Source of the DNA: an uncultured Actinomycetes bacterium
GTDB lineage: Bacteria > Actinomycetota > Thermoleophilia > Solirubrobacterales > 70-9
DNA: 64,000 bases
Direction: 5' to 3'
NCBI GenBank assembly: GCA_937907435.1
Contig: CALCIA010000137.1
Coordinates: forward strand, 39,212-103,211
This document shows, piece after piece, positions 16,026 through 50,153 of the stretch; position 1 is the first letter of the stretch, and each line of letters begins with the position of its first letter. Under the pieces are notes generated by a model. The model was not told where the DNA came from. It saw nothing but the letters and a program-made list of their open reading frames with translations, and did not search any database. A program made the position numbers and the translations under genes.

Positions 16026-16046
16026 ACTACGACATCACGTAGGAGT
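16026..16046. promoter_or_regulatory. palindromic operator site S1
   Basis: ACTACGACatcacGTAGGAGT. 27 nt upstream of the REC start, in the divergent region shared with the DUF1360 gene. Confidence 0.5.
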
Positions 16047-16145
16047 AGCATCGACGTCGTCGGTCATGCCTTCGTGGGACTGGTGTCCAGCGACCGATAG
16101 GCCTGGACGTCGAGGGACCTGGAAACACGATCTAGGAGGACACCA

Positions 16146-16673
16146 ATGCCGGATGGAGACGAGATGTCGCGGCCAGGCGAGTCGACCGCGGCGAGCCGCA
16201 CTGCCGACTACGCGGCGCTCGAGGCCGTATTCGGCGTCGGCATGGTCGGGCTCATCGCGTTGACTTCTCGCCGTGAGCGGGACGGGGGTCATCCGATCTC
16301 GACTGAAGAGCTTGTCCTGCTGGCCATGTCGACGTTCACTCTCGCGGACGTCTTGGCCAAAGAGAGGATCTCGACCTGGCTCCGTGAGCCTTTCGTCGAG
16401 GAGGGAACGGATCACAAGCCCGTTCGCCCCGAGGGCAGCGGGATGCGCTACGCGATCGGTGAGCTCCTCACCTGTACGCGGTGCGTAGGAGCCTGGAGCG
16501 CGATGGGCCTGGTCGCCCTTCGGACCGCCTCGCCGACGGCCGGGCGGGCCACGATGCGTGTCTTGGCATTGGCCGGCGTCAACGATTTCCTGCAGAGCGC
16601 CTTTCGTCTTCTGGCCGAGCGCACGAATCGGGCGGCGGTAGAAACGGAAGCCGCTCGCCGTGCCCTTCCTTAG
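16146..16673 (+). CDS. DUF1360-like membrane protein
   Basis: Hydrophobic helices plus [18 protein letters not shown] (CxxC-x-W motif typical of DUF1360). Confidence 0.6.
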
Positions 16674-19087
16674 GGTCCCGACGAGGAGTCTGCGCCCGCC
16701 GTCTCGGTAACCGCCGGGAGCCGCGCCCGCTTCAGGAGCAGGGCGTTGACGGCGACGATGAAGCTCGACCCCGACATCGACAGTGCCGCAATCTCCGGGC
16801 GTAGCTCGAGCCCCAGCCAGGGTTGGAACACCCCCGCCGCGATCGGCAGGGCGACCGAGTTGTAGCCGATCGCCCAGCCAAGGTTCTGGTGCATTTTCCG
16901 CAGCGTCGCGCGGCCGATCGCCAGCGCGACCGGGACGTCGAGCGGGTCGGACCGCATCAGGACGACATCGGCGGTCTCGATCGCGACGTCGGTGCCGGCG
17001 CCGATAGCGATCCCGAGGTCGGCCTGGGCCAGGGCGGGGGCGTCGTTGACGCCGTCGCCGACCATCGCCACCTTGCGGCCGCCCTGCTGCAGCTCGCTCA
17101 CCTGCGCGGCCTTGTCGCCCGGCAGCACCTCGGCGATCACCGTGTCGATCCCGAGGCCGTCGGCTATCCGCCTCGCCGTCGCCTCGTTGTCGCCGGTCAA
17201 CATCACGACCTGGACGCCGGCCTCGTGCAGTGCGGCGACCGCGGCGGCGGAGGTCTCGCGAGGTGCGTCGGCGATCCCGATCACCGCCGCACCGCGGCCG
17301 TCGATGCCGACGAGCACGGCGGTCCGACCATCGGCAGCCATTTCGTCGCGGCGCCCGGCGAGGGAGCCGAGGTCGATCCCACGCTGCTCCATCAGCCGGC
17401 GGTTGCCGACCGCGACCGAGCGTCCTTCCACGGTGGCGAGAGCTCCATGGCCGGGCACGTTCTCGAACCCGCGGGGCTCGGCGCCGTCGGCACCCGCAGC
17501 CTCGGCGCGGCGCACGATCGCCGCCGCCAGGGGGTGCTCGGAGGAGCGCTCGACCGCTGCGACGATCCGCAGCAGCTCGGCTTCCCGGAAGCCGTCGCCG
17601 ACGACTACGTCGGTGACCTCGGGTTCGCCCTTGGTGAGCGTCCCGGTCTTGTCCATCACGACGGTGTCGATCCGGGCCGACGTTTCGAGCGCGATCGCGT
17701 TCTTGAAGAGGACGCCGCGTTTGGCGCCGAGGCCGGAGCCGACCATGATCGCCGTCGGCGTCGCCAGTCCGAGCGCGTCGGGGCAGGTGATGACCACCAC
17801 GGTGATCGCGAAGAGGATCGCGGTCGAGGTCGGTTCGGAGCTGAAGATCGCCCAGGCGGCGAAGGTGGCGGCGCCGCCGATCAGGGCGACGAGCACCAGC
17901 CAGAAGGCGGCGCGGTCGGCGAGCTTCTGCCCGGGAGCCTTCGAGTTCTGCGCCTCCTGGACGAGCTTGACGATCTGCGCCAGCGCCGAGTCGGCGCCGA
18001 CCTTGGTCGCCCGCACCCGCAGCGTCCCGTTGGCGTTGATCGTCGCGCCGATCACCTCCGAGCCCACCCCCTTGTGGACGGGCAGGCTCTCCCCGGTCAC
18101 CATCGACTCGTCGACCTCACTCTCGCCGTCGGTGACGACGCCGTCGACGGCGATCTTCGACCCGGGTCTCACCACCAGCAGGTCGCCCACGGCCACCTGC
18201 TCGGTCGGGATCTCGACCTGCTCGCCGTCGCGGAGCACCAGCGCCTTCGAGGGCGCCAGGTCGAGCAGGGTGCGGATCGCGTCGTTGGCGCCGCCGCGGG
18301 CACGCATCTCGAACCAGTGGCCGAGCAGGACGAAGGCGGCGAGGACGCTGGCCGCCTCGTAGAAGACGTCGCCGCCGCCGGTGAGGGTGACGCCGACCGA
18401 GTAGAGCCAGCCGGCCCCGACCCCCACCGCGACCAAGACCATCATGTCCAGGGTGCGCGCGCGTAGCGCCCGCAGCGCGCCGACAAAGAAGATCGAGCAC
18501 GAGTAGAAGATCACCGGCAGGCTGAGGATCAGCGTGAAGACGTCCTCGCGCAGGCCGAACGGCGGCGCGACGTGGAAGCCGAAGACGTCGGCGCCGATCT
18601 TCGACCACAACAGGATCGGCACCGAGAATACGGCGGCGACCAGGAAGCGGTTGCGCATGTCGGCGACCATCGAGGCCATCGACATCTCGCCGTGACCGCC
18701 GTGGCCCATGACCTCGTCGGGCGTGCCCCGCATCTGACCCTCCGGCTCTTGCCGCTCGGCCGGGGCGTGCACGTGCCCAGGCACCATCGCCGCGGCCAGA
18801 GGCGCAGGCGGATCGGGCTCCATCAGCGGATCGCAGACGTGCTCGGGCACCGACTGGCCTGCGCAGTGGTAGCCGCACTCGACGATCCAGTCGCGCAACT
18901 CCTCGACCGAGGCCTGCCCGGGGTCGTAGGTGACCGTGGCGGTCTGGGCGACCGGATTGGCCTCGACCTCGAGGACCCCCGGCCGTCGCCCGACCGCCGA
19001 CTCGACCACCGTCTTCTCCGAGGCTCGCAGCATGCCGCTCGCCTCGAGCACGACGGTCTCGGTCCCGCCGTCGGTCGGCGGACTCAT
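16670..19087 (-). CDS. CopB-like (P1B-3-like) heavy-metal P-type ATPase with CPD motif
   Basis: Degenerate HMA without CxxC ([10 protein letters not shown]). His/Met-rich stretch [38 protein letters not shown] (codon GAC verified on the DNA), [17 protein letters not shown]. Start set at ATG 19087. Confidence 0.9.
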
Positions 19088-19224
19088 GTAACGGCTCCAC
19101 GATCCACGCGGCTCACGTCCCCGAGCATCGCAGCCGTTTCGCTTCGCGGCATCGCCCCATGGTCCCGAGGCCGTCCCCATGGGAGGCTTGCGGCGGCGTG
19201 GCCCATGGACGAGACAAAAGCTCC

Positions 19225-19245
19225 ATAACTACATTATGTAGGAGC
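19225..19245. promoter_or_regulatory. palindromic operator site S2
   Basis: ATAACTACattatGTAGGAGC. 17 nt are identical to S16. On the minus strand CATAAT forms a -10-like box and an ATG lies 2 nt after the GTAG half. Confidence 0.7.
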
Positions 19246-19293
19246 ACGGGGCGCCGACCACCCTGGCGCCCCGTGCTAGTGGTCACTCGTCCG

Positions 19294-20590: not shown

Positions 20591-20591
20591 G

Positions 20592-21122
20592 TCAGGCCGC
20601 TGAGTCGGGAGAGACCGGGATGGCGCAGGCACGTCGCGCGCCACGCAGGCGGACGAACAGCGCGGCGCCGGCCATCATCAGCCCCGCCGCGCCGAGGAAG
20701 GGCTGCATCGGGGCAAAGTAGTTGAAGGCGCCGGAGACGCCGAGCAGCGCGACCACGAGCTTGTTGCAGACCGGACAGCCGACGGCGAGCAGGCCGAGGA
20801 ATCCGCTGCCGGCGCTCGCGGCCGCGATCCGGTCGCGGGTCTCACGCGGCAGCACGTAGGTAGCCAGCAGGATCCCGGTCATGATGCTGCTACCGACCCA
20901 GAAGAAATAGTTGCCGGTTTCGGCGGGGATCATCCGCACGAACCAGGGATTGGGGACGATGTCGGTCGGGATCCCGAGCGCAAGCGCGACCAGGGCGATG
21001 CCGAGGATGGCGGTGATCAGAAAGCGTGGGCCCAGCAGCGAGAACAGCGTGGGCCGCTCATCGAATGGTTCCGTGGGTGTGGTGAAGGCTTCCATCGTGC
21101 GGGAAAGCGGGTCTGTGACCAC
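20592..21122 (-). CDS. 4-TM membrane protein with intramembrane CPVC motif
   Basis: 176 aa with hydrophobic helices. GLLAVGCPVCNKLVVALLGVSG. Start ambiguous (GTG 21122 or ATG 21095). Confidence 0.6.
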   Translation of the reverse strand: MVTDPLSRTMEAFTTPTEPFDERPTLFSLLGPRFLITAILGIALVALALGIPTDIVPNPWFVRMIPAETGNYFFWVGSSIMTGILLATYVLPRETRDRIAAASAGSGFLGLLAVGCPVCNKLVVALLGVSGAFNYFAPMQPFLGAAGLMMAGAALFVRLRGARRACAIPVSPDSAA

Positions 21123-21142
21123 ATCCTACAGACCGTAGGAAG
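21122..21142. promoter_or_regulatory. palindromic operator site S3
   Basis: CATCCTACagaccGTAGGAAG (perfect TCCTAC-N5-GTAGGA). Abuts the start of the CPVC membrane protein gene. Confidence 0.7.
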
Positions 21143-21171: not shown

Positions 21172-22134
21172 TCAGCCCTGGCAGGAGTGCGAGCCGCCCG
21201 CCGCAGCGACCGAGGCGACCCCGTCCCGGGCAAGGGCCGGGGTCGCGGCCGCCGTCAGGACGACCAGCGCGACAAGGCTGACGACGAGGGCACGGCCTGA
21301 GAGCTCCACCCAGGCCCGGGGGCGGGCTTTGGTGCGGTCGAGCAGGAAGCGCAGCCGCGCAGCCGTTCCGACCCCGGCAAGGCCGGCAAGCGCCGGACTG
21401 GTCGGCGGTTGGCCTGCGGCGGCTTTGCAGATCGCGCTCGCCAGGGCGACCGGATCGCCGACCCGGCCCACCGCGTACTCGTCGGCGTCGCGCTCGAGGC
21501 AGAACCGGAGCCTTCCGAGCGCGTCGTTGCTGCCGGGAAGCACCCGCGCCAGGGCGAAGGCCACGCTTCCCGCCAAGGCCAGGTAGGGGTGTCGGTGGGC
21601 GATGTGGCCGCGCTCGTGCTCGAGCCCGGCCGCCAGCTCCCCTTCGTCGAGCTTCGCCAGGGCACCGGTGGAGACGATGATCCTGGCGTCGCGGATGCCG
21701 GCGGCGGCGACGACGACATCGGGGCCGCCGATGATCAGGCTCTGGCGGGGTCCCTCGCCGAGGCAGTTGCGGTGAAGCCAACGACGCACGGTGCGGGCGG
21801 TGCGCCAGACGGCGAACACGGCCCAGATCAGCGAGAGGCCGAGGACGAGACCTGGGAGCAGGGTGGCAGCGTCCCCGAGCCGATGGCCCGAGAAGCCCAG
21901 GTGGGTCGCGAAGAAGGGGAGGACCGCGTGGATGCACCAGTGGGTGGTGAGTTGGAAGAGCTGGGTCGCCGGAAGGTAGAGGACGAGGACCAGGGCGCCG
22001 ACGACGACAAGAAGGGCGCGCAGGACGAGCACCGATAACCAGATCGCGGCACCCGTCAGCGGCGTGAGCGCGTCGCGGGGAAGAAGATAGGGAACGGCCG
22101 TCCCGAGCAGGAGCAGGCCGGCGAGGACGATCAT
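21172..22134 (-). CDS. M56 family (BlaR1/MecR1-like) membrane metalloprotease, no sensor domain (pair 1)
   Basis: N-terminal TM helices, HERGHIAHRHP (HExxH), 320 aa with no penicillin-binding domain. Start overlaps the BlaI-like stop (ATGA). Confidence 0.85.
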   Translation of the reverse strand: MIVLAGLLLLGTAVPYLLPRDALTPLTGAAIWLSVLVLRALLVVVGALVLVLYLPATQLFQLTTHWCIHAVLPFFATHLGFSGHRLGDAATLLPGLVLGLSLIWAVFAVWRTARTVRRWLHRNCLGEGPRQSLIIGGPDVVVAAAGIRDARIIVSTGALAKLDEGELAAGLEHERGHIAHRHPYLALAGSVAFALARVLPGSNDALGRLRFCLERDADEYAVGRVGDPVALASAICKAAAGQPPTSPALAGLAGVGTAARLRFLLDRTKARPRAWVELSGRALVVSLVALVVLTAAATPALARDGVASVAAAGGSHSCQG

Positions 22135-22535
22135 CTCGACTTCTTGCCGCCGCGCCTCGCCGCCACCTCGCGGGCGAGCGCCTCGATCTCGTCGAGCTCA
22201 CCCGGGTCCATGTCACCGACGAGGTGGGCCAGCGCCGTACGGCGGGCGCCGTCGGAGGCCGACGCCAAGGTCTCCTGCACCGAGCGCGAGTAGTAGTCGC
22301 CCTCGCTGACCTTCGTCGCGTAGAAGATCGCCTTGCCCTGGCGCTGGCGGACCAGCAGGCCACGCTCGGCAAGGCGGTTGAGCACGGTCTGCACGGTCGT
22401 ATAGGCGCCGCGTTGGCGGTCGGGAAGCTCGTTGCGGACATCGTCGACGCTGGCCGCCCGACCGAGCCGCCAGAGCGCCCTCATCACCTCGATCTGCAAC
22501 TCGCCCTGTAGCTGGACTGCGGTTTCGCGGGCCAT
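22131..22535 (-). CDS. BlaI/MecI/CopY family winged-helix repressor (pair 1)
   Basis: LQIEVMRALWRLGRAASVDDVRNEL...AYTTVQTVLNRLAERGLLVRQRQGKAIFYATKV. Start set at ATG 22535. Confidence 0.85.
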   Translation of the reverse strand: MARETAVQLQGELQIEVMRALWRLGRAASVDDVRNELPDRQRGAYTTVQTVLNRLAERGLLVRQRQGKAIFYATKVSEGDYYSRSVQETLASASDGARRTALAHLVGDMDPGELDEIEALAREVAARRGGKKSR

Positions 22536-22541: not shown

Positions 22542-22562
22542 AAGCCTACATGGCGTCGGGAC
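22542..22562. promoter_or_regulatory. palindromic operator site S4 (autoregulatory position)
   Basis: AAGCCTACatggcGTCGGGAC. On the minus strand it reads GTAGGCTTctgacgATG, i.e. TAGGCT -10-like box 7 nt before the BlaI-like start. Confidence 0.5.
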
Positions 22563-22639: not shown

Positions 22640-22660
22640 GTTCCTACAGTGTGTAGGGAT
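22640..22660. promoter_or_regulatory. palindromic operator site S5
   Basis: GTTCCTACagtgtGTAGGGAT. 66 nt upstream of the M23/cyclase operon. Confidence 0.7.
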
Positions 22661-25375: not shown

Positions 25376-25774
25376 TCAAGTTCGGAGAACCGAGAGCCGT
25401 AGGTAGAGGGGTCCCGCTCTCGCGCGAGGACTCGGCGAGGGCGGGACCCTGGGCAGCCGCCGCGGGGCACGCGACAGCGAGGGTCGAGGCCGGCCCGGCC
25501 GGTGTGTCCGCGGACGGGCGACGAGGAGGGCGACACCGCCGATGACGGCAAGGCAGATGCTCCCTGCCATGCCGTCCATTCCCTTGGGCTCGACGTGGTG
25601 CGTGACGATCAGGCCGCCGAGTGCGAGCACGGCCAGCAGCAGAAGAAGGCGCCGGCGCGTACCGCGCGGCGCCGCGCGTAGCCGTAGGACCACGCCTGCA
25701 TCGCCGGCCGTCGGGGAGTGGTGCGCCTGGCCTTGCATCCTCCATATAGATAGCAACGTCGCACCTCCGGTCAT
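25376..25774 (-). CDS. small 2-TM His-rich membrane protein (paralog 3 of 3)
   Basis: LLLLLAVLALGGLIVTHHVEPKGMDGMAGSICLAVIGGVALLV...ARAGPLYLRLSVLRT. Start ambiguous (ATG 25774 or 25738). Confidence 0.55.
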   Translation of the reverse strand: MTGGATLLSIWRMQGQAHHSPTAGDAGVVLRLRAAPRGTRRRLLLLLAVLALGGLIVTHHVEPKGMDGMAGSICLAVIGGVALLVARPRTHRPGRPRPSLSRAPRRLPRVPPSPSPRARAGPLYLRLSVLRT

Positions 25775-25794
25775 ATCCTACGTCGCGTAGGATG
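25774..25794. promoter_or_regulatory. palindromic operator site S6
   Basis: TATCCTACgtcgcGTAGGATG (perfect TCCTAC-N5-GTAGGA) in a 25-nt divergent gap. TAGGAT lies 6 nt before GTG 25800. Confidence 0.7.
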
Positions 25795-29418: not shown

Positions 29419-30114
29419 CTAGGCCGCCGGATCGGCCGGCGTCGGCCCGTTGAACGGGAAGGCTTCTGGCGGCTCGCCGCCGTATTTGCCCCAGGTTTCC
29501 TTGCCGAAGTCACGGATCGCGTCCTCGGTGAGCAGCGTCGCCGAGTACATCGAGTCGTAGAGCCCCTTCAGCGCCAGTTGGTCTTTTTCGGGCAGGCTGG
29601 GCGAGTATTGGATCTCCATCCGGCCGTGCTCGAGCGAGTGGACGAAGTCGATTTCTTCGGGCATTTTCGAGTAGGCGCCGTCGGCCTGCTGGTAGGGAGG
29701 TTCGACATGGGGGCCGGAGGTCGGCGGATTCGTTTCGTAGGGTGGCGTCGGCGAGCCCGGTGCGATGTGTTCGCTCCCCTCGTCGGAGAGGCCGAGACGA
29801 AGGGTGCAGCCGGCCTGCCTGGCGGCGGTCTTCAGGTCGGTGGCCTTGACCGGTTGCGGCTCCGTGCCGCTGCGCCCGTCTGGCGGGACCCCGTTGGTCG
29901 AGCCCGATTCGACGTTGATATGCGATGGGCCGCTGGCGGCGCCACCGCCGCTGGACACCGCCACCACGACGATCACGGCGATGACCACGACCAACACTAC
30001 GCCCGCCACCGCGGAGCCGAGCACCACGCGTTTGCGTTCGGTTTTGCGCTGGCGCTCTTCTTTTTCCAGGCGGAGCTGGCGGAGTCGTTCTTTCTCTTCC
30101 CTGCGGGTCGCCAT
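29419..30114 (-). CDS. membrane-anchored DUF3105-like protein
   Basis: N-terminal MATRREEKERLRQLRLEKEE plus a TM anchor. YETNPPTSGPHV...VHSLEHGRMEIQY motifs. Confidence 0.7.
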   Translation of the reverse strand: MATRREEKERLRQLRLEKEERQRKTERKRVVLGSAVAGVVLVVVIAVIVVVAVSSGGGAASGPSHINVESGSTNGVPPDGRSGTEPQPVKATDLKTAARQAGCTLRLGLSDEGSEHIAPGSPTPPYETNPPTSGPHVEPPYQQADGAYSKMPEEIDFVHSLEHGRMEIQYSPSLPEKDQLALKGLYDSMYSATLLTEDAIRDFGKETWGKYGGEPPEAFPFNGPTPADPAA

Positions 30115-30134
30115 ATGCTACGCGGCATAGTACT
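30114..30134. promoter_or_regulatory. palindromic operator site S7 (subclass B)
   Basis: TATGCTACgcggcATAGTACT. Touches the DUF3105 start codon. Minus strand reads AGTACTATgccgcGTAGCATATG. Confidence 0.55.
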
Positions 30135-30194
30135 CAAGACGGTCGTACTATTGCGTGCAGGAGGAGGAACGCGCTGCGGGAGGGCACGCGCGCT

Positions 30195-30831
30195 TTATTC
30201 GGGCTTGCGCGCCGCCACCCGCTCGACGATCCCCCACTTCGAGCGCTCCGGCTCGGTGACCTCGAAGCCGGCGGCGCCCAGGTACCCCAGCGTCTTGCGG
30301 GTCAGGTGATCGGCCGCGAAGCGGACGCTCAGCGGCTCCATGAGGCGCTCCGCCACGCGCACGGCCCGCACCGGGCTGCGGACGTGCTCGAGCACCGCGA
30401 AGAGCCCGCCCGTGCATAGGACGCGGAAGACCTCGCGGGCCGCGGCGCCCGGGTCGGGGATCGTGCAGAAGGCGAGGGTGCAGAGGACGCTGTCGAAGCT
30501 CGCGTCGGGAAAGTCGAGCGCCTGGGCGTCACCCACGCGGAGGTCCGCCTCGCGGCCGAGCTCCTGCTTCGGGATCGCCAGCATCTCGGGGCTCAGCTCG
30601 ATCCCGGTCAAGGTGACGTCGGCGCGATGGAGCGGCAGGTTTCGCCCGGTGCCGAGCGCGATCTCCAGCACCTAGCCCTCGGGTCGCGAGCAGGCCCACT
30701 CGCGCCCGCCCGCGAAGAGCACCCGATCGAAAAGGGCCATCTGGCGGTCGTAGCGCGGCCGCCTCCTTGTCCTGGAGGGCGCGGACGCGCTCGGTCTCCT
30801 TGCGTGTGGCGTCTGGGATCGGTTCAGCCAT
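30195..30831 (-). pseudogene. class I SAM-dependent methyltransferase with one frameshift and one in-frame TAG
   Basis: N-terminus MAEPIPDATRKETERVRALQDKEAA is in one frame. RYDRQMALFDRVLFAGGREWACSRPEG is in the next frame. TAG at 30672-30674 sits directly before VLEIALGTGRNLP... (SAM motif). Confidence 0.55.
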
Positions 30832-31780
30832 CGGCCCAGGCGCGCCGCCGCCGCAGCGCATGGCCGGAGAGGAGCAGTGCGGCTATCGCGAGGGTCGCAG
30901 GACCGCAGATCATCAGCCCGGCACAGGCCGCGGCGAGCAGCAGAGGCACCTGCAGGTTCGGATCGAGGATGCCGTGCCAGATCGAGAAGCTCGCCGCCAC
31001 CAGCGCCGCGAGCGCGAGCAGGCTGCGCGCCAACGGCGAGCTCGGGAGCCGCCAGCGTGTCACCTCGGGATCGCCCATCAGGTGATCGATGCGTTCGGGG
31101 GCCAGGCCGACGACCACAGCCGGCCGCCCCGAGGACTCCGAGAACTTGAGAAGGGCGGCGGCGAGCGGGGCGCGGCTGCCGCTCGCCGCCACCGCCGCCT
31201 CGTCGGCCGCAAGCTCGCCGAGCGCGGCATAGCGCTCGCTGCTGCGGCGCAGGATCGGGATGAAGAAGAGCGCGTCGGCAAGGGTGCGCGCCGCGAGCAG
31301 GCGCAGGGGGTCGCGGCGGCGCGCGTGGTGGGACTCGTGGAAGAGGACGGCGCGCAGCTCGGCCGGCTCGAGTTGCTCAACCGCACCTTGGCTCAGGTAG
31401 ACCTGGGGGCGCAGGTAGCCGGCGCAGAAGGCGCGCGGCTCGGAAGAGTCGATCAGCCGGCAGCCGACCCCCTCGATGTCGACCGACTCGGCGCTCGGCC
31501 GCTGGGCGATCAGGTAGCGTCGGCTGGCGCGAAGCTGGCGGCGAAGCGAGCGCGTTCCGAGGCCGAGGGCCGCAAGCGCCAGCACCGCGATCGAGAGCCC
31601 GAGCAGCGAGGCGGGTCCGCCGGCACCCAGCCAGTTTTCGCAGGCCGCCGAGATCGCCTGCGAGCTCGGGACGGCGAGGCTCTGCCTGGTGACGATCAGC
31701 GTCGCGGCGGCGGCGAGGAGGACCGCCGCCAGCGTCGCAAGCACCAAATGCAGGAGGTAGAGCCGCCCGGCGCCCCGCAT
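30824..31780 (-). CDS. M56 family (BlaR1-like) membrane metalloprotease, no sensor domain (pair 2)
   Basis: TM helices, LFHESHHARRRDP (HExxH), about 318 aa. ATG 31780 shares one base with the BlaI-like stop. Confidence 0.8.
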   Translation of the reverse strand: MRGAGRLYLLHLVLATLAAVLLAAAATLIVTRQSLAVPSSQAISAACENWLGAGGPASLLGLSIAVLALAALGLGTRSLRRQLRASRRYLIAQRPSAESVDIEGVGCRLIDSSEPRAFCAGYLRPQVYLSQGAVEQLEPAELRAVLFHESHHARRRDPLRLLAARTLADALFFIPILRRSSERYAALGELAADEAAVAASGSRAPLAAALLKFSESSGRPAVVVGLAPERIDHLMGDPEVTRWRLPSSPLARSLLALAALVAASFSIWHGILDPNLQVPLLLAAACAGLMICGPATLAIAALLLSGHALRRRRAWADG

Positions 31781-32196: not shown

Positions 32197-32217
32197 TCTA
32201 CTATGCTGCGTAGCACT
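32197..32217. promoter_or_regulatory. palindromic operator site S8 (subclass B)
   Basis: TCTACTATgctgcGTAGCACT in the divergent region between BlaI-like pair 2 and the 32229 gene. A TCTACTA direct repeat lies 20 nt upstream. Confidence 0.55.
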
Positions 32218-33568: not shown

Positions 33569-35747
33569 TCAGGCGACTCTCGGTGGCGCGCATCGAGCCC
33601 AGGTCGATGGTGAAGCGCCACCAGGCGGGCGTTCCCTGGTCATAGAGCGCGAGCTCGGCGACCCGCCGGCCGTTCTCGCGGTGGTAGCCGAGCAGGCGCA
33701 CTGCCTGGGCGTAGGGCGTCCAGCGAAACCAGGATCCCGTCGTGAACGCGGGCCCGCCGCCGGCGTAGCGAGTGCGGACCCAGCGCGTCCTGGGGGTGAC
33801 CGGACCCTGCCCCTGGGCTTCCCAGGAAAAGGGGCCGACGGTGATCGAGCGCGCCCCGAGGTCGGTCCGGAACGCGTAGCGGTCAGGAGCTTGGAGCCGA
33901 TAGTGGGAGACGGCGAGGCTCCCGGGTCCGCTCGTCACCCGTTCGTACTGGCGCACGCTCCGCAGTCGGTTCATCGCAGCCTGGGCCTGGCCCAGCAACT
34001 GCCGCGCGCGCTTGTCAGCCCCTCTCCCCGCCTGCCAACGGACCGGTAGCCGGGCCGTGTACAGGTTGCCCTCCTCGGTCACCGACACGGCGATCGTCCG
34101 GGGGCGCCCGGAAAGGCGGAAGCTCCAGCATCCCGGCCCGCAGCCCCTCAACTCGGCCCCGGCGAGGATCGGTTTCCCCGGCGGTGGCTTGAGTTCGGTG
34201 TCGAAGAGGCGCAACGTGCCCTCGAGGCCCGCGGGTCCCTGTCGCACCCATGCGGCGACGATCGAGGAGCCGGCCGCCTCGGCCACGGCCAGCTGGTCCG
34301 CCCTCAGCTTCGGAAGCGGACAGGACGGCCGGCAGGGTGAGGCGAGCGCCGCCGCTCCCTCGGCGCCGCTCAACTGTCGCGGCGGCAGCGGATAGGCGAC
34401 CAGGAGGGCGGCGACGATGAGCACGACCGCCCCGATCGCGGGCTCACCGCGAAGGAGGCGCCAGTGGAGTCTCTCCTGCCCGGGATCGGGGTGGGGGTCG
34501 GCGGCCAGGAGGCGGGGACGGAGGCGGAGGGCGTGGAGGTAGCTGAACACCGCGATCGACCCGACCAGGCCCATCTTCACCGCCAGGGTCCGCCCGTAGG
34601 CGGTCTGCCACAGGGCCTGGGGGCTCCCGAGCTCGATCAGGGCGCTGGTCAGCCCGCTGGCGACGACGACCAGGAAGGCCGGGAGGGCGACGCGCCCGAA
34701 CGGACGCAGGACCCCTCGCATCACCGCGCCGCGCAATTCCTCGCTGCCGCGCATCGCCGGACGGGCCCAGGTGACCACGATCTGGGCGATGCCGCCGATC
34801 CAGACCGCGGCGGCGAGCAGATGGACCCAGTCGGCCGATACCGCGAGGGCCCGTGGGTCGGCGGAGTTCGCGTGCCCGCTGAAGGCGATCGCGGCGAAGG
34901 CAGCGGCGCAGGCGAGCGCTGCCGACCGCGGCATCCGGGCGGCAAGGAGGGCGGCCAGCGCCAGGGCCACCGCGGTCGCGACGCGGCCGAGGCCGGCGGT
35001 GTTGGTCAGCAGGTAGTCGTTTAGGCCGGTGGGGTCGAGCCCCCCGGCGGCGTCGGCCGCTTCGGCGACCGCGACCGCGGCGCCCGTGGCCGCGGCCAGC
35101 CAGCCCGCGCTGATGGTCCGCCGCCAGATCGCGGTGACGGTCGAGTCGGGGTTCTCCCCGGCCGCGTCGAGCGCCAGGCGCAGCTCGCCCGGCGGCAGCA
35201 GCCAACGCGCCCGGCCCTCGCGGCCCGAGAGCGCGGCGGCGTTGAGGAGGCCGCCCGCGAAGAAGAGCAGGGCGCCGTAGAAGATCGCCCGCAGGGCGAT
35301 GCGGAGCCATCCGTCCCGGGCCAGCGGATCCTGCTCGACGACGTGCGCACCCCCGACGGCGGCGGCGCGGACGCCGAAGCTGAACGAGCCCTCGAGTGGG
35401 TGGCCATCGTCGGTGGAGACACTGAACCAGTCGACGCGGTAGGCCGCGGTCGGCAGCGCGGCGGCCGGTTGCAGGACCAGGTCGCGGCTCGGTCCGGCGA
35501 GGGTCTTCGCGGCGATCTTCCTGCCGGTCCTCAGGTCGGTGATCGTCGCCTTGCTCAGACTTCGGTTCAGCCCCTCGGTGAACTCGAGCCTGATCTCCCT
35601 CGGGCTGTCCTCGACCCGCCGGCCGGGCGCGGGCGTCGACTCGAGGAAGGCGGCGTGGGCGGCCGCCGGCGCGGCCTCGAGCGCCATCGCGACCAGCGCC
35701 AGAAGGAGAGTCGCCAGGATGAGCGGGGCGCGGGAGGACAGCTTCAT
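33486..35747 (-). CDS. CopC-CopD fusion copper resistance protein with extra C-terminal periplasmic domain (YcnJ-like architecture)
   Basis: Signal peptide, then mature HAAFLESTPAPG...YRVDWFSVSTDDGHPLEGSFSFGV (CopC). About 8 TM helices follow (CopD), then an approximately 280-aa soluble C-terminal region. Confidence 0.9.
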   Translation of the reverse strand: MKLSSRAPLILATLLLALVAMALEAAPAAAHAAFLESTPAPGRRVEDSPREIRLEFTEGLNRSLSKATITDLRTGRKIAAKTLAGPSRDLVLQPAAALPTAAYRVDWFSVSTDDGHPLEGSFSFGVRAAAVGGAHVVEQDPLARDGWLRIALRAIFYGALLFFAGGLLNAAALSGREGRARWLLPPGELRLALDAAGENPDSTVTAIWRRTISAGWLAAATGAAVAVAEAADAAGGLDPTGLNDYLLTNTAGLGRVATAVALALAALLAARMPRSAALACAAAFAAIAFSGHANSADPRALAVSADWVHLLAAAVWIGGIAQIVVTWARPAMRGSEELRGAVMRGVLRPFGRVALPAFLVVVASGLTSALIELGSPQALWQTAYGRTLAVKMGLVGSIAVFSYLHALRLRPRLLAADPHPDPGQERLHWRLLRGEPAIGAVVLIVAALLVAYPLPPRQLSGAEGAAALASPCRPSCPLPKLRADQLAVAEAAGSSIVAAWVRQGPAGLEGTLRLFDTELKPPPGKPILAGAELRGCGPGCWSFRLSGRPRTIAVSVTEEGNLYTARLPVRWQAGRGADKRARQLLGQAQAAMNRLRSVRQYERVTSGPGSLAVSHYRLQAPDRYAFRTDLGARSITVGPFSWEAQGQGPVTPRTRWVRTRYAGGGPAFTTGSWFRWTPYAQAVRLLGYHRENGRRVAELALYDQGTPAWWRFTIDLGSMRATESRLITQGHYSTQRYFAYNRPTRIVPPRGGS

Positions 35748-35767
35748 CTCCTATGGATTGTCGTAGA
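35747..35767. promoter_or_regulatory. palindromic operator site S9 (degenerate)
   Basis: TCTCCTATggattGTCGTAGA in the 32-nt divergent gap between copCD and the 35780 gene. Two core deviations. Confidence 0.4.
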
Positions 35768-36751: not shown

Positions 36752-36772
36752 CGTACGACTAAGTGTAGTAGA
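36752..36772. promoter_or_regulatory. palindromic operator site S10
   Basis: CGTACGACtaagtGTAGTAGA, about 35-55 nt upstream of the 36719 start. Confidence 0.45.
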
Positions 36773-37819: not shown

Positions 37820-37840
37820 TCTTCTACACAGCATAGTAGC
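37820..37840. promoter_or_regulatory. palindromic operator site S11 (subclass B)
   Basis: TCTTCTACacagcATAGTAGC, about 40-60 nt upstream of the ccdA start. Minus strand reads GCTACTATgctgtGTAGAAG. Confidence 0.55.
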
Positions 37841-37998: not shown

Positions 37999-38622
37999 TC
38001 AGTAGCCGAGCGGGTGGCGTACGGCCAACTTCCCCGACACGACCGAGGCCGTGTCCGCGTACCAGCGCGGACCGGTGCCGTCGGCCGAGCCGGCGGTGTC
38101 CCAGCGCAGCCCGGCGATCACCGCGTAGGTGTGGCCGGCATTGGCGTAGACGGAGATCCACCTGCCGGCTTCAGGTTCGCCCCAGCTCATCAGGCCGGTC
38201 GAGTCGAGTGGCGAGGTGATCAGCCCGCCGCCCCGCAGGGCGTAGCTGACCGCACCCGAGCAGTCATAGCCAGTGTCCCACCATTTGCCGTGCCCGCCAC
38301 CCCAGACGTAGGGCTTGGTGCGGATCCGGTTCGCCCATTCGATCACCTTCTTCACGGCGGGAGGGGCGCTCGCCGGTGCGATCGCCATGCCTTCGACCAG
38401 CTTCGCCCTGGCTCCCGGCACGGTGGGGACGGGCGTCGTTCCCGGCACGGCGGCGACAGGCGGCGCTTCGGTCGAGGTTTCCGGCGCGCAGGGATCCTGG
38501 CCGGCCGAGACGCCACCGAACTGGTTGCAGGCGGCCGAGGCGCCGCCGGTGTTGATCAGTAAGGCGAGGAGGACGAGAGCCAGTGCCCCTCCCAGCCGAG
38601 TTCTCTTTGAAAGCAAGACCAT
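37999..38622 (-). CDS. secreted NlpC/P60 (C40) cell-wall peptidase
   Basis: Signal peptide. KPYVWGGGHGKWWDTGYDCSGAVSYAL catalytic Cys motif. ...AGHTYAVIAG. Confidence 0.85.
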   Translation of the reverse strand: MVLLSKRTRLGGALALVLLALLINTGGASAACNQFGGVSAGQDPCAPETSTEAPPVAAVPGTTPVPTVPGARAKLVEGMAIAPASAPPAVKKVIEWANRIRTKPYVWGGGHGKWWDTGYDCSGAVSYALRGGGLITSPLDSTGLMSWGEPEAGRWISVYANAGHTYAVIAGLRWDTAGSADGTGPRWYADTASVVSGKLAVRHPLGY

Positions 38623-38629
38623 CTCCTTC

Positions 38630-38765
38630 GTCGGCCTACGGAGTTAGCTGACGGGCTCGCGCTGAAAGAGATCGCGCTACGGACTCAAATGTCCGATTCG
38701 CCCCGCGGGGCCGATGTGGCCCCTGTGGTTCCCCCGTTCCGCGTCATTCAGGCGCGGATTCGGCA
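38630..38765 (-). promoter_or_regulatory. c-di-AMP (ydaO/yuaA-type) riboswitch, copy 2
   Basis: Minus-strand RNA: GCGGAACGGGGGAACC ... GGGGCGAAUC ... GAGCCCGUCAGCUAACUCCGUAGGCCGACGAAGGAGAUG. It is collinear with copy 1, and the SD/start of the NlpC/P60 gene lies in the 3' arm. Confidence 0.8.
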
Positions 38766-38792
38766 TAGCTTTGACGCGGCAATATACAGACT

Positions 38793-38813
38793 TGTACTAC
38801 GGCGTGTCGGACT
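38793..38813. promoter_or_regulatory. palindromic operator site S12 (variant)
   Basis: TGTACTACggcgtGTCGGACT, just upstream (minus sense) of riboswitch copy 2. Confidence 0.4.
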
Positions 38814-39358: not shown

Positions 39359-39379
39359 ACTCCTACAGGGTGTAGGATA
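39359..39379. promoter_or_regulatory. palindromic operator site S13
   Basis: ACTCCTACagggtGTAGGATA. TACAGT -10-like box, then ATG 39390 six nt later. Confidence 0.7.
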
Positions 39380-41005: not shown

Positions 41006-41011
41006 GCCGGG

Positions 41012-42078: not shown

Positions 42079-42099
42079 ACTCCTACGATTTGTAGTATC
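42079..42099. promoter_or_regulatory. palindromic operator site S14
   Basis: ACTCCTACgatttGTAGTATC. TAGTAT -10-like box 10 nt before ATG 42109. Confidence 0.7.
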
Positions 42100-45265: not shown

Positions 45266-45286
45266 ACTCCTACGTTGCGTAGGAGT
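45266..45286. promoter_or_regulatory. palindromic operator site S15 (best copy)
   Basis: ACTCCTACgttgcGTAGGAGT, extending to the perfect 10+5+10 palindrome ATACTCCTAC-N5-GTAGGAGTAT (45264-45288). TATAGT follows, then TTG 45303. Confidence 0.8.
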
Positions 45287-45302
45287 ATAGTTCCGGCTCC
45301 TC

Positions 45303-45728: not shown

Positions 45729-45738
45729 GGCGCCGGGC

Positions 45739-47934
<2,196 letters not shown>

Positions 47935-47941
47935 GCAGGAG

Positions 47942-49159: not shown

Positions 49160-49188
49160 GCTTCGCCGGGCCGCAGGCCGAATGGGGT

Positions 49189-49851
49189 CTATTTCGGCCG
49201 GGGCGCGGTGGCGACGTAGAAGGCCATCGTCCCGGTGGCCGTACGAAGCTGGTCCACCTGCTCCGCCCGCTGCAGCCCGGCGTCGGTGAAGATCGAAGGC
49301 AGGGCACCCTCCGCGTTCTCGCGGGTCAGCTCGAAGCCGTCGAGGCTGCGGACCGCGAGGAACGCGATCCGCATCAGCGCATCTTGAGGGGGACCCCAGT
49401 CGGCGACGAGGAGGCGCCCGCCTGGACGGAGGACGCGCGCGATCTCCGCCGCCGTCGCACGCTTGGCGGCAGGCTCCAGATGGTGGAAGAAGAGGGTCGA
49501 GAGGACGACGTCGAAGCGGCCGTCGTCGTAGGGCAGGTCGGTCGAATGGCCCTGGTCGAAGTCGACATGGGCGCCGGCCGAGGAAGCCTTCTGGCGCGCC
49601 CGTGCGAGTATCTCGGGATCGCCGTCGAGCCCGGTGACCTCGGCTCCCGGTTGGGCCCGTTCGGCCGCGATCGCCAGCGTGCCGGTCCCGCAGCCGAGGT
49701 CCAGTACGCGATCCTCGGCCTTCAACTCGGCGATCTCGAGCAGGCGCCGCTTGAAGGCGCCCTCCCGCGAGGTCAGGCGCACCACCGGGTCGTAGAGAGC
49801 GGTGAGGGCGCGATATCGGAGCGCCGGCACGTAGCGAGCGTCCTCACCCAT
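49189..49851 (-). CDS. class I SAM-dependent methyltransferase (UbiE/COQ5-like)
   Basis: VLDLGCGTGTLAIAAE, FDVVLSTLFFHHL, LRPGGRLLVADW. Confidence 0.85.
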   Translation of the reverse strand: MGEDARYVPALRYRALTALYDPVVRLTSREGAFKRRLLEIAELKAEDRVLDLGCGTGTLAIAAERAQPGAEVTGLDGDPEILARARQKASSAGAHVDFDQGHSTDLPYDDGRFDVVLSTLFFHHLEPAAKRATAAEIARVLRPGGRLLVADWGPPQDALMRIAFLAVRSLDGFELTRENAEGALPSIFTDAGLQRAEQVDQLRTATGTMAFYVATAPRPK

Positions 49852-50134
49852 GCGTGACCGACCGGGACGGCGGCTGGGGGTCCATCCGCGCGAGGATTTC
49901 GGCCGCTTCGCTGCGAAGAGTCGCGCGCCGGTGCAGGTAATCCTCCTCGGAGAGCTTTCCGGCAGCGTGGTCCAGTTCGGTGTCCCGCAGCTCGCGGTAC
50001 TTCGCCTCCTTGAGGGCCTCGAGCTCCTCGTGGCGGACGTCGGCCGGGTCGCCGGCGCCGCGACGGCGCCACAGCGGGGCCGCCACCAATGGTGCCACGA
50101 CGGCGACCAGGATCAGCGCGTAGGCGAACTCCAC
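49844..50134 (-). CDS. small membrane-anchored CcmI-N-terminal-like protein (leaderless GTG start)
   Basis: VEFAYALILVAVVAPLVAAPLWRRRG...EELEALKEAKYRELRDTELDHAAGKLSEEDYLHRRATLRSEAAEIL. GTG lies 2 nt after the GTAG half of S16. The track ORF extends upstream through the operator. Confidence 0.5.
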   Translation of the reverse strand: MEFAYALILVAVVAPLVAAPLWRRRGAGDPADVRHEELEALKEAKYRELRDTELDHAAGKLSEEDYLHRRATLRSEAAEILARMDPQPPSRSVTHG

Positions 50135-50153
50135 GACTACATTATGTAGGAGT
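50133..50153. promoter_or_regulatory. palindromic operator site S16
   Basis: ACGACTACattatGTAGGAGT. Minus strand reads CTCCTACATAATGTAGTCGTG (CATAAT -10-like box, GTG start 6 nt later). Confidence 0.7.

Follow-up and report, generated by a model that had tools for sequence, protein, structure and literature searches.

A repeated 21-bp palindrome as the predicted operator of two BlaI-type repressors in a copper and cell-envelope gene island of an uncultured soil actinobacterium

Introduction

The 64-kb stretch of metagenomic sequence analysed here, hereafter the window, comes from an uncultured soil actinobacterium (Thermoleophilia) and carries a 21-bp palindrome that an earlier note had reported at 16 sites, raising the question of whether a single regulatory system reads such a scattered element and, if so, which one. 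The palindrome is a genuine repeated element and not a product of chance, and would most likely be bound by two BlaI-type repressors that are related to each other. Each has a membrane protease as its partner, and between them the two repressors most likely control about 15 gene units for copper handling and the cell envelope. We regard this reading as a whole, comprising two paralogous BlaI repressors, their cognate M56/M48 proteases and the dyads as their operators, as probable.

The palindrome in the window

All 16 site sequences are exact at the positions previously reported (Table 1). The exact core CTAC-N5-GTAG occurs eight times, as had been counted, and the expectation from dinucleotide shuffles is 0.17, lower than the earlier figure of 0.5. 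The degenerate core C[TG]A[CT]-N5-[GA]T[AC]G, formerly given as the core of the motif, is by itself not enriched in the window (23 occurrences vs ~21 in Markov-1 simulations), and its chance estimate was wrong; the signal resides in the extended half-sites. When scored leave-one-out (LOO) on a symmetric matrix, 15 of the 16 sites reach 15.5-24.7 bits, above all other positions in the 64 kb (background maximum ~11.5 bits), S4 (22542) failing at 8.1 bits. Matrices derived from other genomes only place all 16 sites above every unlisted window position, where the maxima are 12.6 and 10.8. S4 is nevertheless marginal: it scores 15.1 on the other-genome class-1 matrix against the background maximum of 12.6, but an alignment of BlaI_1 upstream regions discloses conservation in relatives of its GTAGGCT half, a -10-like box, and not of the full dyad. 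A scan of the full 64 kb revealed no sites beyond the 16-50 kb interval and none at the CDF, ArsR-ATPase and CsoR/CopZ-CopA operons, confirming that the classical metal operons of the window lack the motif.

Table 1. Palindromic sites, neighbouring genes and regulatory features of the window (scores in bits; class-1 and class-2, scores on the respective class matrices)
Feature	Position	Strand	Description	Support
S1	16026..16046	.	dual-class, ACTACGAC / GTAGGAGT; REC-only gene 15535-15999 (-), start 26 nt off; DUF1360 16146 (+)	LOO 21.7; class-1 20.2, class-2 20.7; neighbours, Pfam
P1B copper ATPase gene	16670-19180	-	S2 44 nt upstream	NCBIfam ATPase-IB1_Cu
S2	19225..19245	.	dual-class	LOO 16.1; class-1 17.2, class-2 16.3
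CPVC membrane protein gene, 176 aa	20592-21122	-	start abutted by S3	
S3	21122..21142	.	class-1	LOO 17.6; class-1 24.3, class-2 14.1
M48_1	21172..22134	-	membrane zinc protease, 320 aa, partner of BlaI_1	Pfam M48
BlaI_1	22131..22535	-	BlaI/MecI/CopY-family winged-helix repressor, 134 aa	PF03965 84.9
S4	22542..22562	.	weak dyad resembling class 1; BlaI_1 start 6 nt downstream	
S5	22640..22660	.	class-1; predicted autoregulatory site of module 1, between divergent M23 22726-23943 (+) and BlaI_1-M48 22535-21172 (-)	class-1 23.7, class-2 9.5
S6	25774..25794	.	class-1	LOO 20.9; class-1 24.2, class-2 15.7
Fused MFS/spermidine-synthase-like gene	25800-27311	+	GTG start; downstream of S6; followed by Lgt 27339-28193	
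DUF3105 gene	29419-30114	-	S7 ends on its ATG	
S7	30114..30134	.	class-2, first of a 15-bp-register array	LOO 18.3; class-2 20.9
Pair of weaker dyads, overlapping, at 30129 and 30144	30129..30164	.	upstream of S7	6.5 and 10.8
M56_2	30824..31780	-	sensor-less BlaR1-type M56 zinc protease, 318 aa	PF05569 42
BlaI_2	31780..32169	-	BlaI-family repressor, 129 aa	PF03965 97
S8	32197..32217	.	class-2; predicted autoregulatory site of module 2, between divergent BlaI_2-M56 (-) and unk215-unk229 (+)	LOO 18.3; class-2 22.4, class-1 11.0
CopC-CopD fusion gene	33486-35747	-	S9 ends on its ATG	
S9	35747..35767	.	class-2-leaning	class-2 22.2, class-1 16.1
DUF2933 gene	36480-36719	-	S10 32 nt upstream	DUF2933 23.1
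S10	36752..36772	.	class-2, then AGGAG ribosome-binding site	class-2 22.1, class-1 5.1
CcdA/DsbD_TM gene	37042-37779	-	S11 40 nt upstream	Pfam
S11	37820..37840	.	class-2	class-2 23.5, class-1 11.4
NlpC/P60-like gene	37999-38616	-	leader is the c-di-AMP riboswitch	
c-di-AMP (ydaO-type) riboswitch	38618..38775	-		Rfam RF00379, 77.1 (gathering score 38)
S12	38793..38813	.	dual-class	class-1 16.2, class-2 16.0
S13	39359..39379	.	class-1; between unk52-unk114 (-) and MTase228-C39_2-Ldt operon 39390-42046 (+)	LOO 24.5; class-1 28.2, class-2 19.4; flanks, gene calls
S14	42079..42099	.	dual-class	class-1 20.2, class-2 21.3
TlpA/ResA-like thiol-disulfide oxidoreductase gene	42109-42798	+	S14 9 nt upstream	NCBIfam ResA 78
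S15	45266..45286	.	class-1, perfect palindrome	LOO 24.7; class-1 27.4, class-2 19.1
CcmE-CcmF/NrfE-Lgt-like operon	45303-49159	+	S15 16 nt upstream	
Weakly CcmI-like membrane protein gene, 96 aa	49844-50134	-	GTG start; abutted by S16; then MTase220	TIGR03142 23.3 (cut-off 29.3)
S16	50133..50153	.	dual-class	class-1 18.5, class-2 18.7

Placement relative to genes and promoters

About 15 transcription units have a dyad at the 5' end, as expected of the operator-like element first proposed, and a comparison with the genes called on this DNA upholds the statement that all 16 are intergenic or touch a gene boundary. From the dyad to the next start codon downstream it is -2 to 65 nt, close to the 0-60 nt originally given, except for S12 (176 nt), where the gap is filled by a c-di-AMP riboswitch, which adds a second control layer to this unit. 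The intergenic-versus-coding comparison proposed in the earlier note bears out this placement: among 141 independent sites, 6% lie deep in coding DNA vs 57.5% of random positions (p 3e-38), and 79% are followed by a gene start at no more than 150 nt vs 38.7% (p 1e-22). Two target assignments fared less well. In the window, the 200 nt around DUF305 (24687-25298) are free of sites and the gene is not a direct target, distant DUF305 homologues elsewhere having one in 4/4 cases; the 'ccmI-like' label is sub-threshold.

The suggestion of leaderless promoters, with no room for a Shine-Dalgarno sequence and occluded at the -10 element, applies to part of the sites, including (i) S6, S13 and S14, where a TAnnnT lies within the right half 6-11 nt before the start (TAGGAT 6 nt ahead of GTG in S6 and 11 nt ahead of ATG in S13), and (ii) CopCD and DUF3105, where the operator abuts the start codon. 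It does not extend to DUF2933, which in almost every one of 20 homologue loci examined has an unmistakable AGGAG leader, nor to S12, which has a separate TATATT -10 (38786-38781) downstream of the operator. With the riboswitch 5' end as the anchor, the operator spans about -38 to -18 of this promoter, which drives both the riboswitch and the NlpC/P60-like gene. A scan for consensus sigma-70 promoters found none.

The half-site might be read mainly as a promoter element, either the -10-like TAGGAT/TAGTAT or an alternative sigma factor motif, with the dyad symmetry being secondary. The right halves of S6, S13 and S14 suit this reading, as does a lone GTAGGCT box that three relatives conserve 7-12 nt ahead of the ATG of BlaI_1 and that is there not part of a full dyad (GCTAGGCT in L046); however, it is quite improbable, since both halves are kept with a fixed 5-bp spacer in >140 sites, the distance to the start codon spans -2 to about 100 nt, T occupies position 20 in only 22/206 class-2 half-sites, and S12 has its own -10.

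A structural repeat, either REP-like DNA or a hairpin in the RNA, with an 8-bp stem and a 5-nt loop, that affects transcript stability or termination, would account for the perfect 8+5+8 palindrome of S15 and for the location of S2, S7, S12 and S14 just past the stop codon of the upstream gene. Most of 131 sites, however, have only 4-6 of 8 Watson-Crick pairs, and the hairpin reading is disfavoured because a change in one half is not matched by a pairing change in its partner (compensated departures, 0/11 at position 3, 3/22 at position 6, 8/40 at position 2 and 10/35 at position 8). Conservation is thus of specific bases and not of pairing, and the sites follow gene starts instead of gene ends, making this explanation extremely improbable.

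Two repressors and two operator classes

The link originally drawn to both BlaI-like repressor genes stands, each having a dyad upstream of itself. Both proteins find their best PDB match, supporting the BlaI family assignment, in 2G9W (E 7e-11 for BlaI_1, 3e-13 for BlaI_2), and neither contains Cys; the database call for BlaI_2 (110 aa) is too short, its N-terminus being conserved in the alignment. The recognition helices, AYTTVQTVLNRL in BlaI_1 and AYTTIMTIMARL in BlaI_2, differ systematically between the paralogues (Q49/N53 vs M/A), Q49/N53 being invariant in 20 homologues.

Class matrices and the paralogue content of loci replace the single motif formerly described by two paralogue-specific classes, together with sites scoring on both: class 1, TCCTAC-N5-GTAGGA, goes with BlaI_1 (units of M23, Lgt, methyltransferase and CcmEF), and class 2, TACTAC-N5-GTAGTA, with BlaI_2 (CopCD, DUF2933, DUF3105 and CcdA). 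Position 4 carries the code, being C in 28/28 half-sites of BlaI_1 loci vs 16/216 of BlaI_2 loci (Fisher 9e-26). In a larger set, sites of BlaI_1-only loci are C/C in 24 cases, mixed in 4 and non-C in 0, and those of BlaI_2-only loci are non-C in 93, mixed in 14 and C/C in 1. The classes are not absolute, mixed half-sites amounting to ~13% even where a locus has a single paralogue, which makes cross-binding likely. S1, S2, S12, S14 and S16 score equally on both class matrices; these sites combine one half of each class, heading the REC, Cu-ATPase, NlpC/P60 riboswitch, TlpA and CcmI-like units, and could be bound by either repressor.

These equal scores and mixed half-sites, together with consensus sequences that differ at essentially one position per half, would also be compatible with one regulator, or both BlaI proteins interchangeably, acting on all 16 sites, the C/A at position 4 being tolerated noise. 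We consider this unlikely, given the almost perfect separation of position 4 by nearby paralogue, the lack of any non-C/non-C site among the 28 of BlaI_1-only loci, and recognition-helix residues that are invariant within and different between the paralogue families. Moreover, locus L020, encoding both paralogues, contains both operator classes in separate zones.

Conservation in other genomes

Where homologues of the BlaI-like repressors of the island occur, the motif occurs as well. Independent Thermoleophilia loci, selected by homology to BlaI_2 and by nothing else, yielded 116 matches in 554 kb vs 0.6 expected, and 32 exact cores vs 0.8. Furthermore, the genes of 5/5 Myxococcota/proteobacterial BlaI_2 homologues (38-44% identity) are preceded by TACTAT-N5-ATAGTA at 21-29 nt. 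No site lies directly upstream in 27/44 BlaI_2 homologues; at several of these loci the upstream sequence resembles coding DNA, and the gene may sit behind another one.

The motif is also kept at orthologous promoters, with variable spacers. A site accompanies 10/12 CopCD homologues, and at 6 loci, with identities as low as 50%, it abuts the start codon; sites likewise accompany 18/20 of DUF2933, 7/8 of unk215 and 3/4 of DUF3105. L005 retains sites orthologous to S7-S14, and the S7 geometry at DUF3105 recurs in L005, L006 and L007. The two weaker dyads of the S7 array, which have AGTACT/CGTACT hexamers in common, form with S7 an array with counterparts in L005 (11361/11376/11391), L007 having a second site at 18.7. 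Upstream of BlaI_1 homologues and beside a divergent M23 gene, counterparts of S5 occur in L044, L045, L046, L048 and L050, and in L044-L046 their distance to the start of BlaI_1 is also the same (93-106 nt). The units headed by class-1 sites in L048 are those headed by them in the window, including the SpmSyn-like-Lgt unit (as S6) and the CcmE-CcmF-Lgt-like operon (as S15).

All compared loci are also metal islands with several regulators, and co-occurrence alone thus leaves room for another co-occurring regulator, such as CsoR, an ArsR-type protein, the lone receiver domain or the sigma/HTH protein at 51393, with the BlaI genes as mere targets. The paralogue-specific code, by which a change of BlaI paralogue goes with a change of operator class, and the candidate autoregulatory sites of the distant Myxococcota homologues argue against it; in addition, neither the CsoR/CopZ-CopA unit nor the ArsR-ATPase unit of the window has a site, and the REC and sigma-like proteins have no homologues in related loci. 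This explanation is very improbable.

Protease partners and proposed mechanism

Both proteases preserve the catalytic HExxH and E...D residues as well as candidate sensor residues. In M48_1, whose gene overlaps that of BlaI_1 by 4 nt, HExxH, E214 and D218 are 100% conserved (6 sequences), and a conserved WC67xH69...H78...H84 loop is accompanied by a C-terminal C318; a second comparison gives 9/9 for H173, H177, C67, H78, H84, C236 and C318, and 8/9 for H69. M56_2 displays, across 29 sequences, a conserved HESHH motif and, according to the topology, conserved C47 in the outer loop and C286/M290 in the outer part of the last TM helix.

From these patterns we infer repressor binding, repression, proteolysis and the identity of the signal. 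Under the two-repressor reading, BlaI_1 would recognise the class-1 sites (M23/BlaI_1, CPVC membrane protein, SpmSyn-like-Lgt, MTase-C39-Ldt and CcmE-CcmF-Lgt-like) and BlaI_2 the class-2 sites (BlaI_2/unk215, DUF3105, CopCD, DUF2933 and CcdA), with each repressor presumably co-transcribed with a sensor-less membrane zinc protease, M56/M48 (BlaR1-like). Repressor dimers on or beside the core promoter or start codon would block initiation. The protease would perceive a signal, most likely an envelope copper or thiol/redox disturbance, acting on its conserved outward-facing Cys/His/Met residues, and would trigger cleavage of the cognate repressor, derepressing the units, the repressor-protease operon included. 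Since copper import under starvation is one role that CopC-CopD fusions can have (PMC13344008), the response could be to copper shortage and not excess; the signal for the dyad-controlled units could also be other than copper.

Comparison with known systems

The literature searched contains no described system with such a regulon, combining copper, cytochrome c maturation, thiol and wall functions. Both repressors differ from CopY, scoring 51.7 (BlaI_1) and 51.6 bits (BlaI_2) on the CopY_TcrY model, below its cut-off of 122. On the protease side, M48_1 and M56_2 differ from BlaR1 in lacking the penicillin-binding domain, keeping instead outward-facing Cys/His residues.

Dyad Sites in the Window

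The earlier note described a single 21-bp dyad repeated at 16 positions between 16026 and 50153 (S1 to S16, numbered along the plus strand), and all 16 strings were recovered exactly and in place. In the window, whose G+C content is 69.8%, the exact core CTAC-N5-GTAG was observed eight times vs 0.17 expected from dinucleotide-preserving shuffles; the looser core originally put forward, C[TG]A[CT]-N5-[GA]T[AC]G, shows no enrichment when taken alone (23 observed vs ~21 in Markov-1 simulations), and the signal therefore resides in the extended half-sites. Leave-one-out scoring with a symmetrised matrix placed 15 of the 16 sites at 15.5-24.7 bits, above all other positions of the 64 kb (background maximum ~11.5 bits), S4 being the one site not above background (8.1 bits), and the whole-window scan returned no position of comparable score outside 16-50 kb. 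With matrices built from other genomes only, each of the 16 sites scored higher, on one matrix or both, than any window position not on the list. Gene calls on the identical DNA place every site between genes or at a gene boundary, as first proposed. The observation is confirmed and strengthened.

A hairpin or REP-like repeat was considered as the origin of the symmetry and rejected: most of 131 sites carry just 4-6 of 8 complementary positions, and a departure in one half usually meets the consensus, not a compensating base, in the other (compensation in 0/11 cases at position 3, 3/22 at position 6, 8/40 at position 2, and 10/35 at position 8). In 687 kb of true loci, exact perfect-palindrome forms of 14-16 bases turn up once at most.

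Conservation of the Sites with the Repressors

The window encodes two repressors, BlaI_1 and BlaI_2, each paired with a membrane zinc protease (M48_1 and M56_2, respectively). Related loci, from Solirubrobacterales and Thermoleophilaceae MAGs, were gathered by protein homology, comprising 38 loci chosen by BlaI_2 homology alone and two by exact-protein look-up. Across 554 kb of these loci, the window-trained matrix yielded 116 hits at a threshold of at least 15 bits vs 0.6 simulated, and the exact core was found 32 times vs 0.8 expected. In the syntenic island L005, encoding a repressor 80% identical, sites occupy positions orthologous to S7-S14 with changed spacers. Anchoring by protein homology placed a site just upstream of (i) CopCD (10/12), (ii) DUF2933 (18/20), (iii) unk215, a window protein (7/8), (iv) DUF305 (4/4), (v) DUF3105 (3/4), and (vi) the repressor homologues (17/44), and the relatives add SCO1/SenC, cupredoxins, DsbD-type proteins, and BNR propellers as further targets. 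A gene start lies within 150 nt downstream of 79% of 141 independent sites vs 38.7% of random positions (p 1e-22); the motif is not equally common in coding DNA, with 6% of these sites lying deep inside it vs 57.5% of random positions (p 3e-38).

Relatives keep both S8, the site preceding BlaI_2, and S5, the site preceding BlaI_1, so that each repressor has the own-operon dyad operator that is the autoregulation trait of PF03965 repressors. Many BlaI_2 homologues (L015, L017, L020, L022, L025, L033) follow the end of a gene whose product has a SHOCT-like ...EEYYERE... tail, and an operator further up the operon may explain the missing site directly upstream of those homologues. In five of five Myxococcota/proteobacterial homologues (38-44% identity), TACTAT-N5-ATAGTA stands 21-29 nt upstream of the repressor's own gene, which ties the motif to the repressor family and not to the copper island.

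Two Operator Classes

The reading of a single motif was abandoned, position 4 of the half-site splitting according to the paralogue encoded nearby, and is replaced by two paralogue-specific classes together with shared sites: class 1, TCCTAC-N5-GTAGGA, goes with BlaI_1, and class 2, TACTAC-N5-GTAGTA, with BlaI_2. The 103 sites of BlaI_2-type loci give the consensus TCTACTAC-N5-GTAGTAGA, and 165 of their 206 half-sites have A at position 4; C occupies this position in 18/32 window half-sites, and loci gathered by BlaI_1 homology contain CCTAC...GTAGG-type sites only. With the sites called blind to position 4, C was found in 28/28 half-sites of BlaI_1 loci vs 16/216 of BlaI_2 loci (Fisher 9e-26). 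In the enlarged set, BlaI_1-only loci comprise 24 C/C, 4 mixed, and 0 non-C sites, and BlaI_2-only loci 1, 14, and 93, respectively; the window, encoding both repressors, has 5 C/C, 6 mixed, and 4 non-C sites, an enrichment of mixed sites (p 0.016). In L020, a related locus that also encodes both paralogues, each class occupies a zone of its own.

The sequence of the recognition helix changes along with the operator class: BlaI_1 homologues read AYTT[VI]QT[VI]LNRL, all 20 sequences having Q49 and N53, and BlaI_2 homologues read AYTTIMTIMARL. In L048, another related locus, class-1 sites head SpmSyn-like-Lgt, M23/BlaI_1, methyltransferase, and CcmE-CcmF-Lgt units, which are the units of the window.

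Gene Map of the Island

The DNA comes from an uncultured Thermoleophilia genome and matches the ENA metagenomic scaffold KANT15-1_SAMN05509838_METAG-scaffold_230; the gene map combines Pfam and NCBIfam scans with a gene caller's coordinates on that identical scaffold.

Features of the window, with the class of each operator site
Feature	Position	Strand	Remarks
Left flank			Two CDF genes, Nramp, ArsR-ATPase, a DUF305, CsoR/CopZ-CopA; no site at any
Second c-di-AMP riboswitch	1820-1973	-	73 bits; 5' end of ORF 975-2000 (-)
DUF305 gene	10616-11320	-	
Motif-bearing block	16-50 kb		Contains two repressor-protease pairs
BlaI_1	22131-22535	-	Pairs with M48/M56-like protease, 21172-22134
DUF305 gene	24687-25298	-	
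DUF3105	29419-30114		
BlaI_2	31780-32169	-	Pairs with M56 protease, 30824-31780
unk215	32229-32876		
229-aa Cys-rich protein	32879-33568	+	
CopC-CopD fusion	33486-35747	-	
c-di-AMP (ydaO-type) riboswitch	38618-38775	-	77 bits; leader of NlpC/P60-like gene, fills the 176-nt gap of S12
CcmE-like, CcmF/NrfE-like, Lgt-like fusion operon	45303-49159	+	Counterpart in L048, 15162-19052
TcpC-like and AAA_10 genes	57502-61938	+	AAA_10 conjugative-transfer ATPase-like; border the metal island
Right flank			Conjugative-element genes (TcpC-like, AAA_10)
Class 1 sites			S3, S4, S5, S6, S13, S15; matrices from other genomes only
Class 2 sites			S7-S11; matrices from other genomes only
Dual sites			S1, S2, S12, S14, S16; equal scores on both class matrices, from other genomes only

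An integrative conjugative element probably carries the metal island; in the related locus L044, integrases adjoin the BlaI_1 genes. A megablast search of 25 kb against plasmids found no close annotated relative, the ATPase alone being matched (~80%). The second riboswitch is situated away from the motif block.

DUF305, counted among the target operons in the earlier note, is a weak member here, neither DUF305 gene of the window having a site within 200 nt, though distant DUF305 homologues in four genomes have one. The operon of CcmE-like, CcmF/NrfE-like, and Lgt-like genes stands behind a class-1 operator in both genomes; its CcmF/NrfE-like protein scores 398 bits on TIGR00353. The CcmE-like and CcmF-like genes are System-I-type haem-handling parts, and the scanned window genes include no further Ccm component besides a weak CcmI-like ORF. 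The CopC-CopD fusion has a C-terminal extension of ~300 residues (455-753) outside all Pfam models, with two CxxxC pairs (C472/C476 and C536/C540). The 229-aa Cys-rich protein contains eight cysteines, including a CCCPC motif; its gene is co-transcribed with unk215 behind S8 and overlaps the convergent CopCD gene by ~80 nt at its 3' end. unk215 and DUF3105 begin alike, with M[TA][ST]R.EEKERLR..., after which come a single TM helix and an outer domain rich in His, and they look like paralogues; each stands behind a class-2 operator.

Repressors and Membrane Proteases

Both repressors pass the cut-off of PF03965 (Penicillinase_R), with scores of 84.9 and 97.0 bits vs 22.6. Their closest PDB relative is 2G9W (E 7e-11 for BlaI_1 and 3e-13 for BlaI_2), an entry titled only 'conserved hypothetical protein' that we take to be M. 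tuberculosis BlaI (Rv1846c), and other matches comprise BlaI, MecI, and CopR; the ALAHF / ALA[HQ]L stretch of the repressors aligns with 'LVHFVERV' of 2G9W. BlaI_1 and BlaI_2 contain no cysteine, nor does a family alignment of 21 sequences, and among BlaI_1 homologues a single non-conserved cysteine, outside any CxC motif, occurs in 1/20. Public calls give BlaI_2 as 110 aa, but the 19 N-terminal residues that this product lacks (MA...PPPLHELE) are conserved in homologues, and a start at 32169, giving 129 aa, is preferable.

Both proteases adjoin the repressor gene and are co-oriented with it, as in a BlaI/BlaR1-type module, with overlaps of 1-4 nt within the pairs. They preserve the HExxH and E...D elements: M56_2 (PF05569, 42 bits) displays H148, E149, H152, E189, and D193, 100% conserved in 29 sequences, and M48_1 conserves H173, E174, H177, E214, and D218. 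The proteases, of 318 and 320 aa, end after the fourth TM helix, and Pfam and NCBIfam scans detected no penicillin-binding (transpeptidase) sensor domain in either. The M56_2 type (29 sequences) shows 93-100% conservation of C47, in a predicted outer loop, and of C286 and M290, in the outer part of the last helix; the M48_1 type (9 sequences) has a (near-)invariant W-C67-x-H69...H78...H84 loop between helices 2 and 3, together with the C-terminal C318. From these conserved Cys, His, and Met residues, placed on the outer face by hydropathy and a positive-inside argument, we infer a sensor role.

Promoter Geometry

The first interpretation needs correction here, the geometry of the promoters being heterogeneous between units. 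In CopCD, the last base of the operator is the A of the ATG in 5/6 loci and lies just before the GTG in the sixth, an abutment that holds down to 50% protein identity. The operator of DUF3105 abuts the start likewise in four loci, three of which have another site 24-29 nt farther upstream. Upstream of DUF3105, overlapping dyads in a 15-bp register are found in the window (30114-30164), in L005 (11361-11411), and in L007, upstream of 12028; this tandem array, with shared AGTACT/CGTACT hexamers, is partly conserved. Leaderless or short-leader promoters overlapped at the -10 box were proposed for most sites: the proposal holds only for a subset of units, the right half of S6, S13, and S14 providing a TAnnnT 6-11 nt before the start. 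In DUF2933, by contrast, a clear AGGAG comes after an operator located 17-45 nt upstream. A consensus sigma-70 scan returned no promoters in 17 kb. Repression by occlusion is plausible.

At S12, a TATATT stands between operator and riboswitch, with 6 nt separating it from the former and 6 nt from the 5' end of the latter, so that the operator covers about -38 to -18; the NlpC/P60-like cell-wall hydrolase would then be under joint control by a repressor and a second messenger, c-di-AMP. S4 is a weak member: its dyad stands where it was described but is window-specific, relatives keeping the GTAGGCT half alone, a -10-like box that precedes the ATG of BlaI_1 by 7-12 nt.

Proposed Mechanism and Significance

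The first interpretation was essentially correct: the dyads are probable BlaI-type operators that join copper, thiol-redox, cytochrome-maturation-like, and cell-wall genes. The conserved regulon comprises CopCD, DUF2933, DUF305, SCO1, cupredoxin, CcdA/TlpA, and Cu-ATPases, a set suggestive of copper or envelope thiol stress. A tentative mechanism, which we regard as rather doubtful, is that the sensor-less M56/M48 proteases directly sense copper at the membrane (or the envelope thiol/redox state) and cleave the Cys-free BlaI proteins, the two modules being joined by operators. Sensing would involve the outer clusters C47 with C286/M290 in M56_2 and WCxH...H...H with C318 in M48_1, the cysteine-free repressor would be proteolysed in response, and class-specific and dual-class operators would wire the two modules so that copper trafficking is coordinated with cell-envelope remodelling. 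If true, this would represent a metal-sensing route distinct from CopY, CsoR, CueR, and CopRS.

The island provides (i) a concrete, testable candidate for what sensor-less BlaR proteases perceive; (ii) a natural specificity pair, in which a single base in each half-site varies jointly with one or two residues of the recognition helix; (iii) a compact system for studying how winged-helix paralogues are kept insulated from each other and where operator sharing is deliberate; (iv) a peptidoglycan hydrolase with putative combined control by a repressor and a c-di-AMP riboswitch; and (v) a first regulatory map of a metal island in Thermoleophilia, an abundant, almost uncultured soil lineage.

Comparison with Known Systems

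In the literature searched, no BlaIR-type system governing copper trafficking in Actinomycetota is described, nor are paired BlaIR modules with separate operator codes. DUF2933 is recurrent in copper-ATPase/cupredoxin clusters (PMC8478169), and YcnJ-type CopC-CopD fusions import copper for oxidase assembly (PMC13344008), so by analogy the class-2 regulon could serve copper supply as well as defence.

CopY/TcrY regulators (Enterococcus hirae CopY, Lactococcus lactis CopR) belong to the same superfamily and control copper genes, and the PDB matches of the repressors include 2K4B, the DNA-binding domain of L. lactis CopR. According to a 2024 review, CopY is confined to Firmicutes and senses Cu(I) directly via a C-terminal CxCx4CxC (PMC11672702). 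Neither window repressor has a C-terminal CxCx4CxC (or CxC) metal site, both score below the cut-off of the CopY/TcrY model TIGR02698 (51.6 and 51.7 bits vs 121.95), and no window promoter has the Firmicute cop box TACAnnTGTA, whose sole match (23746) lies inside the M23 coding region; with no cysteine, a sub-cut-off score, and no promoter cop box, the repressors are therefore not CopY-type metal sensors. Unlike CopY, they are paired with a protease.

The canonical BlaI/BlaR1 and MecI/MecR1 systems of Staphylococcus and Bacillus resemble the window modules in the operon of a repressor and an M56 zinc protease, in autoregulation via a dyad operator, and in the conserved HExxH and E...D elements. 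In contrast, the window proteases are devoid of the extracellular sensor domain of BlaR1/MecR1, there is no beta-lactamase or PBP2a target, and the operators are spaced TAC-N5-GTA, whereas those of canonical BlaI/MecI are spaced TACA-nn-TGTA.

The sensor-less systems C. difficile CenIR, M. abscessus BlaRI, and P. aeruginosa PvmSR share with the window the absence of a beta-lactam-binding domain. Most annotated BlaR-like proteases and most BlaIR-like systems are sensor-less, and their signals are not known (PMC13492132); the P. aeruginosa system affects virulence and metabolism (bioRxiv 10.64898/2026.08.03.742534). The CenIR regulon (PMC13492132) includes an L,D-transpeptidase as well as a peptidoglycan hydrolase, in parallel to the M23, NlpC/P60, and Ldt units of the window. 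In the available parts of the sources on CenIR, BlaRI, and PvmSR, these systems are not linked to copper trafficking, unlike the window, which comes from uncultured Thermoleophilia, and there is no mention of paired paralogous modules with separate codes or shared operators.

The operator of M. tuberculosis BlaI, reportedly described by Sala and colleagues in 2009, is TAC[GT]AC-N5-GT[AC]GTA, presumably the same as the class-2 core TACTAC-N5-GTAGTA. M. tuberculosis BlaI/BlaR (Rv1846c/Rv1845c) is actinobacterial, as here, and likewise has a partner protease without a penicillin-binding domain (bioRxiv 10.64898/2026.08.03.742534). Its regulon, as cited in the literature (PMC12565901, PMC8265638), concerns blaC, ATP-synthase-linked genes, and cell division, and not copper trafficking, unlike that of the window. 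Sequence identity is low between M. tuberculosis BlaI and the window repressors, and M. tuberculosis has one module, whereas the window has two that differ in operator code, together with dual-class sites.
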